Shown: piece by piece, positions 38,768 to 46,014 of the stretch
Numbering within the stretch: the stretch's first letter is position 1
How the letters are laid out: each line of letters opens with the position of its first letter
From: an uncultured Clostridiaceae bacterium
Lineage (GTDB): Bacteria; Bacillota; Clostridia; TANB77; CAG-508
NCBI GenBank assembly: GCA_946998225.1
Contig: CAMPYH010000001.1
Coordinates: 388,094-452,093, forward strand
DNA length: 64,000 nucleotides
Reading direction: 5' to 3'
Made by a program: the position numbers and the translations under genes
Notes under the pieces: model-generated
Told to the model about the DNA's origin: nothing
The model's input: only the letters and a program-made list of their open reading frames with translations
The model's database searches: none

Positions 38768-41700
38768 ATGAGAAAAAAACAAAATAGAAAAGTAAAAGTA
38801 AAATTAAATAAAATAATATTACAGGTACTACTTTTAATATTAGTATCAATTGCTTTAATTACACAAAAAGAAAACATATTAAATATATTTACAAATAAAA
38901 ATAAAATAAAAGCTGAAATACCAGCAGATATGAAAATAGGAGATATAATTAAATATGACCATAAAACAGGTGTAAAACCAGAGGACTTAAAAATAACCAT
39001 AGGAAAAGGAACAGCAAGCATACCTGGATCAGGAAGATACTTATCTCCAGATGATCCTGTTGAAGAACAAACATTCGATGCGAGTAATATAAATACAACA
39101 TGGCGCGTATTTAATATGGACAAAGCAAATAATGAAATAATGATAGTATCAAACAACATATATCCAGAATTTAAAACATATGGTGCAATAGACTATATAT
39201 GGTATGAACATAATATGCATAAGATAGCAAGTATATTTGGCCATGGAAAAGGTGCAAAAAAGAAGGTATTTGAATATAAAGTAGGATCACAATTAGAAGA
39301 TACAGGGGATACAGCAACATGGAAAACAGGAACTAATGGAGTTCCACTAACAGGTGCAAGACCACTAAGAACAGAAGATATAGAAAAAGCATTTGGATGG
39401 GTTGAAGGTACAATATACAGCAATTCAAAGTTTAAGAAAAACTCAGGATATGGTATAAAACATACAAGAAACATATATTTTCCACAAAGAGATACAGGAA
39501 GTAATGTGCAACAATGGGCAGATAAAAATATAGCAAAAGCAGCAAAGCAAGATGTAGAAGTGAAAGACGGATCCTACTGGATTGATAAATCTAATGTACC
39601 AGAAAACAATTATAAAAAAGTATTATGGGATTGGAATGGTAATAACGAGTTCCAATTAGGCCGAGTAGGCCTGGCTGTTTATTCGGACTATGTTGAATTC
39701 AGAATGGGTGTGGTCGATTTTTACAACTTCTATTCAGCGTTCGACAGTTTCGTGTATGCGAGTATTTATGATGGTGGCTGGGTTGAGTATGACCGTTCGT
39801 ATGCTAGCCGTGTAGTAGCCTTCTTGTCGTCATCGGACATCATATATCGTAAATCCAGTGCCTTTGGCGCCCATCAAGAACAAATCTGGGAAATAGAAGA
39901 AAAACGAACACTTCCAAAAGGAATGCAAATAGGAGATATAGTAAACTATGACCATAAAGCAACTGGAGTAAAGATAGAAGACAAAAGATTGGCAAATATT
40001 GTAGAAAATCAAAAAGTGTTAAAAACTACCATAGGGGAAGGAACAGCAAGCAAGCCGGGTTCAATAAAGGAACAAAACTTTGATGCAAATAAAATAGATA
40101 CAAATTGGCATGTATGGGGAGTAGATGAAGAAACGGGAAATGTTATAATAGTTTCAGACAGTGTAGCACCATTTATAACATATGGTGCAATAGATTATAT
40201 ATGGTATGAGCATAATATGCATCAAATAGCAAGTATATTTGGTCATGGAAAAGGTGCAAAAAAGAAAGAGTTTACATATAAAGTGGGATCACAATTAGAA
40301 GATGAGGAAGATACAGCAACATGGATAACAGGAATTAATGAGGTGCCACTAACAGGTGCAAGACCACTAAGAACAGAAGATATAGAAAAAGCGTTTGGTT
40401 GGACAGAAAGTTATATAAAAAAAGCCGGTTCAAAGTTTACAAGATATGAATATAACTGGGGCGAAACATCCACTGAAAATATTTATTATCCACAAAGAAA
40501 AGTAGATGGTATAAACCAAATCTGGGATAATGAAACGATAGCAAAAGGCCCTAAAAAGAATGTAACAGCATACAATAGAAGTTATGGTATAAATAAAGGC
40601 AAAATAATAGACGAAAATGATACAAACATTTCTGAAGAAAAGAAGAAATTATATAAACGCTATATAAACATATTATGGGATTGGAATGGTAATAACGATT
40701 TTCAATTAGGACAAGTAGGCCCGGTTGCTTTTCCTGACCGTGTTGACTTCAAAAGGGGTATGGTTCGTTCTGGCAACTTCCGTTCAGCGGACAATGGTTT
40801 CGTGATTGCACATAATACTGGCCACTGGTCTGAGTATGGCAATGCGTTTCCCGGGCGTGTTTTATCCTTTTTGTCGTCATCGGACATCACATATCGTAAA
40901 ACTAATGCTGCTGGCGCACACCAAGAACCGGTGTGGGATATAGAACTTAAATCACCGGCAACCAAAAACATTAAAGTAAATATGAAGAATGAATTTGGAG
41001 AAAATCTAAGTGGTATTAAATTTAATATTGGCGTGGACGAAGGAGCGTCCGTGCTAAGCCGCATTAATTTAAATATAAATAGTGGTACTGTGTATTCGTT
41101 TAATCAATCTAATGTTGTTATGAAAGATAATAAATACAAAATGGAGGTTCTTGGTCTCCCTACTGGTGCAGATTACAAGATAATATCTAAATATGGAGAT
41201 GTTCATGAACTTGAACAAGATATTGTGTCATTTGGAAAAGAAAATCTAGAGTATGATATATTAATCTACCGTAAAGATGGAGATTATCCAGTAACAGTTA
41301 CATATGAAAATGGAGAAGATGATAAAGGATTTAGTCTTGAAGGAAAGATAAAATTAATGGATGGAAAAAAAGCTATTAAGACATTGAAGGTTACTTTGAA
41401 AAAGGGTAATACTGAATTTAAGTTTACTGATGTAAAATATTTTGTTGATGGTAAGTTTAAAAATTACAATATTAAGTATGAAGGTGAAGGTGATGTTAAA
41501 GTTGATGGAAATGAATTAAAGGTAAAATATACTCCGCCTAAGAAAAATTACAATATTAAAGCAGAATTTATCTTTGATAAAACTTTAGATAAAGTGCCAG
41601 TAAAGCTATTTGCTGATGGTAAACCTTTAAAAGATATTGAACTTTTAAAGAGCGAGGATTATATACATGTAGAAAATCTTCCTGCAAGAAATGATTCAGG

Positions 41701-41929
41701 TAAAGAAATTACTTACACAATTCAAAAAGGAAATATTCCTTCAGGATATATTACAGAGATATCTGGACTTACAATAACAATACGTCCGGTTCTTACACTT
41801 CCTATGAGTGGATCAGATAGTATAAAGATGGTTGGAATAACAGCTGGAATATGTGTTGCTTTAGGAGCTATAGGAAGATTTAAGAATAAATTTATAATAT
41901 TCTTTAAAAAGTATGAGATTATGAAGTAA
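38768..41929 (+). CDS. surface protein with ~340-aa internal tandem domain duplication and LPMSG-type C-terminal sorting signal
   Basis: Signal/TM at the N-terminus. Two copies of a large domain (e.g. GAIDYIWYEHNMH(K/Q)IASIFGHGKGAKKK…VGSQLED…TGARPLRTEDIEKAFGW in both). Ig-like C-terminal repeats. LPMSG + hydrophobic + RFKNK tail. Confidence 0.75.
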   Translation: MRKKQNRKVKVKLNKIILQVLLLILVSIALITQKENILNIFTNKNKIKAEIPADMKIGDIIKYDHKTGVKPEDLKITIGKGTASIPGSGRYLSPDDPVEEQTFDASNINTTWRVFNMDKANNEIMIVSNNIYPEFKTYGAIDYIWYEHNMHKIASIFGHGKGAKKKVFEYKVGSQLEDTGDTATWKTGTNGVPLTGARPLRTEDIEKAFGWVEGTIYSNSKFKKNSGYGIKHTRNIYFPQRDTGSNVQQWADKNIAKAAKQDVEVKDGSYWIDKSNVPENNYKKVLWDWNGNNEFQLGRVGLAVYSDYVEFRMGVVDFYNFYSAFDSFVYASIYDGGWVEYDRSYASRVVAFLSSSDIIYRKSSAFGAHQEQIWEIEEKRTLPKGMQIGDIVNYDHKATGVKIEDKRLANIVENQKVLKTTIGEGTASKPGSIKEQNFDANKIDTNWHVWGVDEETGNVIIVSDSVAPFITYGAIDYIWYEHNMHQIASIFGHGKGAKKKEFTYKVGSQLEDEEDTATWITGINEVPLTGARPLRTEDIEKAFGWTESYIKKAGSKFTRYEYNWGETSTENIYYPQRKVDGINQIWDNETIAKGPKKNVTAYNRSYGINKGKIIDENDTNISEEKKKLYKRYINILWDWNGNNDFQLGQVGPVAFPDRVDFKRGMVRSGNFRSADNGFVIAHNTGHWSEYGNAFPGRVLSFLSSSDITYRKTNAAGAHQEPVWDIELKSPATKNIKVNMKNEFGENLSGIKFNIGVDEGASVLSRINLNINSGTVYSFNQSNVVMKDNKYKMEVLGLPTGADYKIISKYGDVHELEQDIVSFGKENLEYDILIYRKDGDYPVTVTYENGEDDKGFSLEGKIKLMDGKKAIKTLKVTLKKGNTEFKFTDVKYFVDGKFKNYNIKYEGEGDVKVDGNELKVKYTPPKKNYNIKAEFIFDKTLDKVPVKLFADGKPLKDIELLKSEDYIHVENLPARNDSGKEITYTIQKGNIPSGYITEISGLTITIRPVLTLPMSGSDSIKMVGITAGICVALGAIGRFKNKFIIFFKKYEIMK
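38900..40930 (+). repeat. ~1.0-kb intragenic tandem duplication (copy 1 ~38900-39900, copy 2 ~39905-40930)
   Basis: Flanking parts are ~90% identical at the DNA level (e.g. 39181-39420 vs 40181-40420). Central GC-rich sub-segments are diverged. Confidence 0.7.
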
Positions 41930-44292: not shown

Positions 44293-45051
44293 ATGAAAAT
44301 GTTAAAAAAAATATTAGTAATGATATTATTAATTTTAATGGTTGTTGCTTCAGTATTTTTTATAGTAGATAAAAAAAGATTTTTAAAGAAAAAAGCACCA
44401 ATATTTAGTATTAGAAGAGAAAGCGAAGATGAAACTAAAGTTACATATATTGGTCTTGGATACAAAATAGTTACATATCCAGAAGGAACACCTAAACAAG
44501 AGTTTAAAAAGATTAAACATAAAAAAATAGTTCCATGGTTTGGAGATTACAAAAAGCCAAGTAAAAAAGCTAAAGGAAAAGCTAAAAAAGTAAGTATTAA
44601 AACACAAGATGAATTCTATAAATACTTAGGAAGTAAAAAAATAAAAGCTAAAAAACCAACAGATAAATTTAATAAAGAAGATGCAAAAAATAACAAATAC
44701 TATATATTTGAAAATGGAATGGAAACAAATAGAGAAAAACTAGACGAATTTATGAAAAAATATAGTGAAAACGAAAATGCATTTTTAGAAATAGCTAAAG
44801 TTACAGAAAAAGGTGATTTAATTCTATATCATATAATCTATGAAAAAGGAGCTAAAAAGCTATATATAATAGTAGATACAAAAAGAGATCAATCATTAGA
44901 TAAAAAATTAAGAAAAATAGAATTATATAAACTAGATAAAATTGAAATTAAAGAAGAAAATTCTAAAAAGAAACTTGTATCTTTTGAATCTAAAGAAAGT
45001 AGACCTGAATTAGATTCATTTAGATCAATGACAATAACTGAAGTTAAATAG
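44293..45051 (+). CDS. membrane-anchored hypothetical protein (paralog A of tandem pair)
   Basis: TM anchor. The conserved block KVTY(I/M)GLGYKIVTYP and the C-terminal half …ELYKLD(K/N)IEIKEENSKKKLV… are shared with the next gene. Confidence 0.6.
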   Translation: MKMLKKILVMILLILMVVASVFFIVDKKRFLKKKAPIFSIRRESEDETKVTYIGLGYKIVTYPEGTPKQEFKKIKHKKIVPWFGDYKKPSKKAKGKAKKVSIKTQDEFYKYLGSKKIKAKKPTDKFNKEDAKNNKYYIFENGMETNREKLDEFMKKYSENENAFLEIAKVTEKGDLILYHIIYEKGAKKLYIIVDTKRDQSLDKKLRKIELYKLDKIEIKEENSKKKLVSFESKESRPELDSFRSMTITEVK

Positions 45052-45246: not shown

Positions 45247-46014
45247 ATGAAAGTATTAAAAGCAATATTAGGAATAATATTAGTTTTAGTAATTCTTGGA
45301 GGAGTTTTCTTTTTAATAGATAAAGGAAGATTTAACAAAAATGAAAAACCAATATTTGCAGTAAGAATGCAAGAAAAAGATGGAGGCAAAGTTACATATA
45401 TGGGACTTGGATATAAAATAGTTACATATCCTGGAGTTTCACCTAAAGAAACATTTAAAACTACTAAATACAAAAAGATGCTTTGCTGGTTCCAAGATTA
45501 TGAAAAACCAAAAATGGTAGAGGTTAAAGAAAAAGCTCAAGATATTAAGGAAGCAGTGATTAATTCAACAGAAGATTTCTATAAATATTTAGAAGATAAA
45601 AAAATAAAAGTTGAAAAAGAAATAGAAAAATTTGATGAAAAAGAAGCAAGAGATAAAAACTATTATTTATTTAAAGGAAAAGAAGAAATTAATAGAGAAA
45701 AATTAGATGAATTCATGGATAAATATGGTAAAAATGAAAATGCATTTTTAAAAGTAGCAACACCTACAAAAGAAGGAGATTTTATACTTTATCATATTGT
45801 ATATGAAAAAATGAATAAAAAAATATACATGGTTGTAGATACAACAAGAGATAAACATGCAGATGAAAAAACAAGAAGAATTGAATTATATAAATTAGAT
45901 AATATAGAAATAAAAGAAGAAAATTCTAAAAAGAAACTTGTAGCTTATGAAGGAAAAGAATATAGACCAGAATTAAGCTCAGTAAGATCTGCAGAAATTA
46001 CAGAAGTTAAATAA
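45247..46014 (+). CDS. membrane-anchored hypothetical protein (paralog B)
   Basis: Paralog of the 44293 gene. Strong RBS aaaaggagg. Confidence 0.6.
   Translation: MKVLKAILGIILVLVILGGVFFLIDKGRFNKNEKPIFAVRMQEKDGGKVTYMGLGYKIVTYPGVSPKETFKTTKYKKMLCWFQDYEKPKMVEVKEKAQDIKEAVINSTEDFYKYLEDKKIKVEKEIEKFDEKEARDKNYYLFKGKEEINREKLDEFMDKYGKNENAFLKVATPTKEGDFILYHIVYEKMNKKIYMVVDTTRDKHADEKTRRIELYKLDNIEIKEENSKKKLVAYEGKEYRPELSSVRSAEITEVK

Follow-up and report, generated by a model that had tools for sequence, protein, structure and literature searches.

Evidence that the GC-rich cores of a two-headed adhesin gene are variable regions of a diversity-generating retroelement, at a locus probably out of step with its template

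The 64-kb stretch of DNA analysed here (the window; contig CAMPYH010000001.1 of assembly GCA_946998225.1, from an uncultured Clostridiaceae bacterium) belongs to a genome of 26% GC. Inside one of its genes, which encodes a putative surface adhesin with two tandem head domains, two short cores stand out by their high GC content. The question raised by this locus is how such cores arose, and why the two differ from each other mainly at the codon positions that are ordinarily conserved. As described below, the cores are very probably (probability roughly 0.95) variable regions (VRs) written by a diversity-generating retroelement (DGR), a reverse-transcriptase system that rewrites ligand-binding codons, with one VR in each head domain. 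The window gene itself is probably an off-site paralogue at the mutS locus, whose DGR-written VRs no longer keep step with the template; in other words, it seems to be orphaned or dormant.

Core 1 (39659-39880) has a GC content of 0.46 and a GC content at third codon positions (GC3) of 0.47; the values for core 2 (40703-40939) are 0.49 and 0.42. GC3 is about 0.19 in the rest of the adhesin gene and 0.116 ± 0.042 in the other open reading frames (ORFs) of the window, with a maximum of 0.311 among 1399 windows of 74 codons. The cores are also the top two 200-nt GC windows of the 64 kb (0.495 and 0.455; the next is 0.41). Adenine makes up 0.20-0.22 of the cores against a mean of 0.44, and the AT skew turns negative. 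The codons CGT, TCG, GCG, GGC, CCG, TTC and GAC, which are foreign to a 26%-GC genome, are used, and the encoded residues are depleted in K, N, I and E and enriched in G, V, R, S, F and Y. The rise in GC might be a by-product of this amino-acid composition (beta-rich and G/A/V/R/S/F/Y-rich) or of an overlapping antisense gene, and an antisense ORF of 120 residues (40702-41064, reverse strand) does cover core 2. However, it is at synonymous third positions that GC rises most (0.42-0.47, compared with 0.19 for the rest of the gene), which rules out amino-acid composition as the cause, and core 1 has no matching antisense ORF. The antisense ORF was rejected as a gene: an adenine-poor sense strand gives few antisense stop codons, so that such an ORF is expected by chance and is most likely a by-product. 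This explanation is thus scarcely credible.

The original prediction had described a tandem duplication of about 1 kb with GC-rich cores, short identical anchors, flanks that are about 90% identical and cores that diverge strongly. The duplication is evident from direct repeats spaced 993-1050 nt apart and from 59% amino-acid identity over 316 aligned residues in a self-alignment of the head copies. The GC-rich cores are real and beyond chance, as judged from the values above. The anchors, too, were found as described: TTATGGGATTGGAATGGTAATAACGA and TTGTCGTCATCGGACATCA are each present twice and exactly, the latter at 39824 and 40871. The figure of 90% is close to the truth for some 240-300 nt of the flanks (88% between 39169-39409 and 40171-40411), but the other flank blocks are 50-82% identical. 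The cores are not especially divergent in overall terms, since their DNA identity between copies is 67-77% and several flank blocks are no higher; it is the placement of the differences that is unusual. Between the two core copies, identity reaches 0.80-0.85 at codon position 3 but is 0.57-0.75 at positions 1-2, whereas the order is reversed in the flanks. The pattern of the cores is also the opposite of that left by ordinary purifying selection. Divergence is non-uniform along the repeat, and the cores differ between strains, so that neither observation that would have contradicted the original prediction was made. In the consensus of 24 homologues, fixed and variable residues alternate in both cores (VxSxxVxFxRGxVxSxxFxSAxxxFVxAxxDGxWxE).

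Related metagenome loci or contigs (L001-L008) were used for comparison. The closest homologue of the window adhesin, with 74% identity, is in L001, where the gene order is tsaD, a 319-residue reverse transcriptase (RT) of the RVT_1 family, a 141-residue ORF, a 278-residue ORF, a third copy of the core that lies between genes, a 160-residue ORF and the target gene. This third copy is a template repeat (TR) of 154 nt with a GC content of 0.40. It encodes ...VNSNNVNFRRGMVNSDNFNSANNNFVNANTDGSWNENDNT..., and 15 of its 51 codons are AAY (AAT or AAC). The mismatches between the L001 VRs and the TR fall at TR adenines in 18 of 18 cases for VR1 and in 27 of 28 for VR2 (45 of 46 together). In L002, all 20 mismatches of VR2 to its own TR are at adenines and none of the 101 non-adenine sites is changed, and in L008 the proportion is 22 of 23. 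Mismatches confined almost entirely to TR adenines are the signature of a DGR; in these sister genomes the VR differs from the TR essentially only at adenines, as is required of a DGR target. Furthermore, an RT of the DGR clade lies near the TR in L001, L002, L007 and L008. The RT matches RVT_1 (3e-20) and phrog_1423 (1e-64) and carries an LGSMTSQ motif. Its best PDB match is a reverse transcriptase of 328 residues, 8ub7 (E 4e-16), which we take to be the DGR RT of Bordetella phage BPP-1. These data show that the DGR is functional in the sister genomes. For each VR, the TR would in principle allow about 10^26 protein variants.

It should be mentioned that the 160-168-residue ORF between TR and target (L001 9538-10020; L008 10531-11037) resembles MutS domain I, weakly in L001 (E 0.005) and with a precomputed Pfam match in L008. 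An RT relative of 457 residues, P0237, combines RVT_1 and MutS_I in a single protein. Proximity to mutS itself is also seen: the L008 cassette is a few kb downstream of a real mutS, and the putatively orphaned copy in the window abuts mutS.

In the proposed mechanism, the DGR of the species would be located at another locus, at tsaD, outside the window. A transcript of the TR would be copied by the RT, which places random bases opposite adenines, and the resulting complementary DNA (cDNA) would overwrite the VR, guided by an element at the 3' end of the VR. The invariant anchors at the VR edges would be retained. The peculiar features of the cores can all be explained in this way. A VR inherits the non-adenine bases of the TR and does not drift to AT-rich codons, which would lead to high GC3 and foreign codons. 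Swapping of TR adenines for random bases would leave fewer adenines, a raised GC content and a negative AT skew, and the AAY codons of the TR would cause position 3 to be fixed and positions 1-2 to vary.

The features of the locus are collected in Table 1.

Table 1. Coordinates of the adhesin gene, its head domains, variable regions and associated elements in the window
Feature	Position	Strand	Basis or remark
Adhesin gene, 1053 residues	38768-41929	+	ORF list, translation
Head domain copy 1, residues 51-381	38918-39910	+	Self-alignment, AlphaFold2 model
5' framework anchor TTATGGGATTGGAATGGTAATAACGA, encoding LWDWNGNN	39623-39648	+	Identical in copy 2 at 40673-40698
VR1, 157 nt, with 3 nt inserted compared with the TR	39666-39822	+	blastn with L001 TR
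3' anchor GCCTTCTTGTCGTCATCGGACATCA, candidate target-recognition element resembling an initiation of mutagenic homing (IMH) element	39818-39842	+	Begins where TR/VR homology ends
Weakened small hairpin after VR1, GTGCC-TTT-GGCGC	39858-39870	+	dG -2.5, z -0.3
Head domain copy 2, residues 382-726	39911-40945	+	Self-alignment
VR2, 154 nt, in register with the TR	40716-40869	+	blastn with L001 TR
Copy-2 3' anchor TCCTTTTTGTCGTCATCGGACATCA	40865-40889	+	Counterpart of GCCTTCTTGTCGTCATCGGACATCA
Long hairpin, stem GGCGTGGACG/CGTCCGTGCTAAG, loop AAGGAG	41028-41057	+	About 145 nt downstream of VR2 only
Sorting signal: LPMSG at 41798-41812 (residues 1011-1015), hydrophobic segment, basic tail (…GRFKNKFIIFFKKYEIMK; RFKNK…KK)	41798-41926	+	Translation

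The cores might instead be recombination cassettes unrelated to a DGR, or DNA acquired horizontally from an organism of higher GC content, with a separate insertion in each repeat. Their GC3 and their codons CGT, TCG, GCG, GGC and CCG are indeed alien to a 26%-GC genome, and the gene is mosaic between near-identical genomes. However, the donor that was found is an intergenic template adjoining an RT in the same species group, and the differences are adenine-specific. Every non-decayed paralogue has the same composition at exactly the TR-homologous interval. In addition, no TR-like third copy or silent cassette was detected in the 64 kb of the window by blastn and nhmmer with the cores or by blastn with the TR. 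An origin from foreign cassettes is therefore very unlikely. The suggestion of a higher-GC donor in the original prediction holds in so far as there is a donor, which is the element's own TR with its adenines randomised via cDNA, not a foreign genome; the proposed search for a donor cassette elsewhere led to the TR in the metagenome contigs of the sister genomes and to none in the window. A conserved framework with a variable cassette, or a variable ligand-binding insert, had also been proposed. The cores are homologous to DGR VRs, which agrees with this, but adenine-specific mutagenic retrohoming by an RT had not been named. Gene conversion of the flanks is unneeded to explain the cores, although the mosaic structure of the gene is clear. 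The third GC-rich patch, at 41030-41066, is real (GC 0.64), but it corresponds to the long hairpin of Table 1 and lies outside the repeat.

The recurrent 3' anchor might be the element that guides homing. In L001, the TR/VR homology stops at GCAG, just before this anchor. The anchor DNA is kept, including the genome-atypical TCG and GAC codons, in the window, L001, L002, L004 and L006, and is eroded in the decayed paralogues of L003 and L005. The anchor GCCTTCTTGTCGTCATCGGA is retained at both window VRs, where it may play the role of an IMH. About 35 nt after the VR, a small hairpin, GCGCC-NNN-GGCGC, is intact at four of the four VRs of DGR-linked genes (dG -5.8, z about -2.3). In the window, the hairpin is weakened after VR1, and its counterpart after VR2 (about 40905-40920) is lost (dG -1.5). 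Among the window, L001 and L002, the stem of the long hairpin is conserved while its loop varies. L004 and L006 have eroded versions of this hairpin, and L003 and L005 have none. In its L001 counterpart (12233-12264), a stem of 13 bp that includes two G.T pairs encloses a loop of 6 nt (dG -10.6, z -3.2, 1/200 shuffles), and the values for the window hairpin are dG -6.8 and z -1.0. No Rfam family matched anywhere across the 64 kb.

The window VRs were scored against the TR variants of the species group (L001, L002 and L007), the TR of L008 being distant. Flanking DNA in the contigs of L004 and L005 matches the window at 96-98% identity, and the L001 contig is 97-99% identical to that of L006, which is from the same sample as L004 and L005. 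L001 is thus probably near-conspecific with the window, and the recovered TRs can be used as species-level proxies. VR1 has 22-24 mismatches at TR adenines, 12-15 elsewhere and the 3-nt gap; VR2 has 26-27 and 12-15, respectively. This means that 22-27 of the 47-49 TR adenines are mismatched, an enrichment. Between VR1 and VR2, differences are found at 29 of 49 TR-adenine sites and at 21 of 101 others (odds ratio 5.5, p 6e-6). The composition is that of active VRs: GC3 is 0.48 in VR1 and 0.44 in VR2, with adenine at 0.19 in both, and the ranges in active VRs are 0.43-0.48 and 0.16-0.21. Fully decayed VRs (VR2 of L003 and both of L005) have a GC3 of 0.09-0.20 and adenine of 0.28-0.38.

Ten non-adenine mismatches per window VR persist against every one of the three variants, whereas active VRs have 0-1. 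The L007, L001 and L002 TRs were each considered as a better-matching template, and the non-adenine mismatches remained; the L008 TR was rejected as the cognate because it is too divergent. VR1 and VR2 clash at 21 of the 101 non-adenine sites, and a 3-nt indel separates them, so that one TR cannot at present serve as the template of both. Furthermore, no RT was found in the window by tblastn with the L001 cassette proteins or by a scan for ORFs with an RT-type YxDD motif. The lack of TR and RT in the window, the non-adenine mismatches, the clash between the VRs, the weakened or lost hairpin and a further allele (P0020/P0174) in which each VR has the same sequence in two samples indicate that the window VRs are probably out of step with the template.

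Several points weigh against this explanation. Elsewhere in the genome of the window, there may be a cognate or second TR that matches one VR better than the four recovered variants. Both window VRs have retained the 3' anchor, GC-rich synonymous codons included, and a full VR-like composition; in a target that had long been dead, erosion of both would be expected. At the same locus in L004, some 60% of the adenine sites in the VRs (29-30 of 49) are different from those of the window despite flanks that are 96-98% identical, which implies diversification or allele replacement at the mutS locus within the history of the species. VR1 of L002 (10905-11058) is DGR-adjacent and has an intact 3' anchor and hairpin, yet it shows 11 non-adenine mismatches to its own TR; such mismatches alone are therefore no proof of a dead target. 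VR2 of the same gene has none, which points to import of a foreign VR by recombination or to VR2 being used selectively. With regard to the DGR itself, an Avd/HRDC accessory was not recognized: the 141-residue ORF directly after the RT (133 residues in L008) has no Pfam, NCBIfam or PHROG match. It shows a weak similarity to ferritin-like helical bundles (E 0.02).

The retained anchors and composition, most of the hairpin at VR1, and the saturated adenine-site divergence from L004 could also mean that the window gene is a live remote target, with VR1 and/or VR2 rewritten in trans by a DGR about 100 kb or more away. Remote targets at more than 100 kb from the RT are known for non-phage DGRs, with seven in Treponema as an example (PMC5758913). 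However, homing would erase the non-adenine mismatches, of which there are at least 10 per VR to every recovered TR. The clash between VR1 and VR2 and the loss of the VR2 hairpin are also difficult to reconcile with continued rewriting. In the survey of known DGRs, a non-adjacent target was recognized by A-to-N differences only, with minor exceptions (PMC5758913), and the window VRs differ from the TRs at other bases as well. A live remote target, although the foremost alternative, thus seems unlikely. It is considered instead that the window gene is probably an off-site paralogue; its VRs were apparently written by the DGR in the past, and rewriting would by now have stopped or become very rare.

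Up to four loci of this gene occur in the species: a DGR-adjacent locus at tsaD (L001, L002 and L007), the mutS locus (the window and L004), a dprA-rpsO locus (L005, without a counterpart in the window) and a locus after ftsW (L003 and L006). L007 adds one extra TR variant, found by a pattern scan of metagenomes, and L008, reached via the nearest other RT cluster, contains a distant single-VR DGR beside mutS. The VRs of the family range from perfectly templated to fully eroded, with mismatches at 1 to about 60 of 102 non-adenine sites in off-site paralogues. At the dprA-rpsO locus, the window (28353-28385) and L005 (9873-13199) differ by an extra 1046-residue adhesin paralogue between the two genes, present in L005 only. 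On either side the flanking DNA is 98-100% identical, which makes the difference a clean presence/absence polymorphism about 3.3 kb in size.

The adhesin consists of an N-terminal hydrophobic signal or transmembrane segment, two tandem head domains, a stalk containing Cna_B and an LPMSG sorting signal. The Cna_B match to Pfam (residues 940-1004) has an E value of 5e-8 with the whole protein and 5e-12 with its C-terminal part. The LPXTG-type motif, hydrophobic segment, basic tail and Cna_B stalk of MSCRAMM-like proteins are all present. Based on the signal, tandem domains, stalk and LPMSG tail, the protein is predicted to be a two-headed cell-wall adhesin of the sortase type. An exact look-up of the window protein gave no record; a large protein collection contains 25 homologues, almost all of which have two heads and a length of about 1040-1100 residues, and the motif IRPVLTLPM.GSDS is invariant in 24 of them. 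The more distant L008, where the whole cassette lies a few kb downstream of mutS, has a single-headed target with a single VR. This means that the tandem duplication of the head is derived in the lineage of the window. The gene is in an ordinary chromosomal context, with miaB-mutS on one side and a GNAT acetyltransferase gene on the other.

The mosaic structure mentioned above is seen against L004 in two segments of the window (39328-39660 and 40318-40700), despite flanks that are 96-98% identical. An insert of about 22 residues (IPLTTPxGIPGITTKEGLKDIVVPLSG) is missing from both window head domains. In addition, a segment of about 60 residues just 5' of each VR has two forms, ...PQRDTGSNVQQWADKNIAKAAK... 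and ...PQRKVDGINQxWDNExIAKGPKKNV..., and which of the two head domains carries which form differs from allele to allele.

The AlphaFold2 model of the head (copy 1) has a pLDDT of 93 and a pTM of 0.92, and the VR covers four to five consecutive beta-strands in it. Searches of Pfam, NCBIfam and PHROGs assigned no family to the head domain, and no PDB chain matched it in sequence. Foldseek gave no match in the PDB, Mtd included, for the whole domain or for its C-terminal half. The best structural match was a phage DUF6273 protein, which was non-significant (E 0.09, prob 0.38), and Pfam DUF6273 gave no hit at E up to 10 among 18 members of the family or at E up to 0.01 among 10 distant relatives. 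A full search with a hidden Markov model gave 212 clusters of head relatives. Several of the relatives examined are about 330-450 residues long with an N-terminus like that of type IV pilins, and such an N-terminus would fit a binding role at a fibre tip. We speculate, with considerable doubt, that the head is a third DGR scaffold, neither C-type-lectin nor Ig-like, in which alternate residues of a beta-meander of four to five strands are variable, and that the paralogues form an archive: the DGR-linked copy would explore specificities and the off-site copies would freeze useful ones, perhaps to be re-activated via the 3' anchor.

Two further observations concern the window outside the adhesin gene. 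A 2802-residue ORF at 10328-18736 is also present in a near-identical contig (the start of L005). At 44293-45051 and 45247-46014, adjacent paralogues of about 250 residues have weak, sub-threshold DUF4362 matches; this pair shows about 74% DNA identity to each other across L004 and the window.

The mechanism is known, and the window gene adds to the class of DGR targets as an off-site copy without a retroelement. In the BPP-1 DGR, which comprises bRT, Avd, TR, the VR of Mtd, an IMH and a hairpin, TR and VR likewise differ at adenines, and the TR is rich in AAY codons as at the sister loci. Moreover, a conserved 3' element with a small GC hairpin after it marks the end of the TR/VR homology at the sister loci, as in BPP-1. 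Unlike the phage system, the sister system is chromosomal in a low-GC bacterium of the Gram-positive type. The gene order (RT, small ORF, ORF, TR, MutS-I-like ORF, target) is different, and there are two internal VRs per gene instead of one C-terminal VR. No Avd match by sequence was found, the VR domain has no Foldseek match to Mtd, and the window copy lacks a cassette.

The survey of 372 DGRs in 2018 by Wu et al. recorded up to seven remote targets and one gene with three VRs (PMC5758913). The latter is a single CLec1 target gene, two of the three VRs being internal (PMC5758913). The present gene shares with it the presence of several VRs, and the 3' recognition element of an internal VR must also encode protein. 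The two VRs here, however, come from tandem duplication of a whole domain of about 335 residues. In the DGR of Treponema denticola (TvpA) and in the "Lineage 4" cellular DGRs, one DGR likewise serves scattered paralogous surface-protein genes (PMC5758913). The off-site paralogues described here differ in that they show graded non-adenine decay and depart from their template beyond what a live remote target would show. DGRs are also known to diversify the type V pilus adhesins of Bacteroides (bioRxiv 10.1101/2024.11.15.621889) and the DUF6273 "tentaclin" targets of Firmicutes phages (PMC10743442, PMC11792537). Here, as in those systems, diversification by a DGR affects the binding head at the distal end of a fibre or of a stalk built from Ig-like domains. 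The present protein is unlike them in its sortase-type LPMSG anchor, Cna_B stalk and lack of a Pfam DUF6273 match. A full-text literature search retrieved no paper joining "diversity-generating retroelement" with "LPXTG".

Metagenome surveys cannot detect VRs when the retroelement lies off the fragment (PMC8144416). Even in that situation, DGR VRs can be recognized as sharp islands that are rich in GC3 and poor in adenine, with more conservation at position 3 than at positions 1-2. A structure of the head would show whether DGRs are restricted to C-type-lectin and Ig scaffolds. For the organism, the finding means that an uncultured low-GC bacterium has an anchored adhesin with two heads, and that reverse transcription rewrites, or once rewrote, these binding heads. 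For the gene family, the paralogues, from templated to decayed, form a natural series on the birth, orphaning and erosion of DGR targets.

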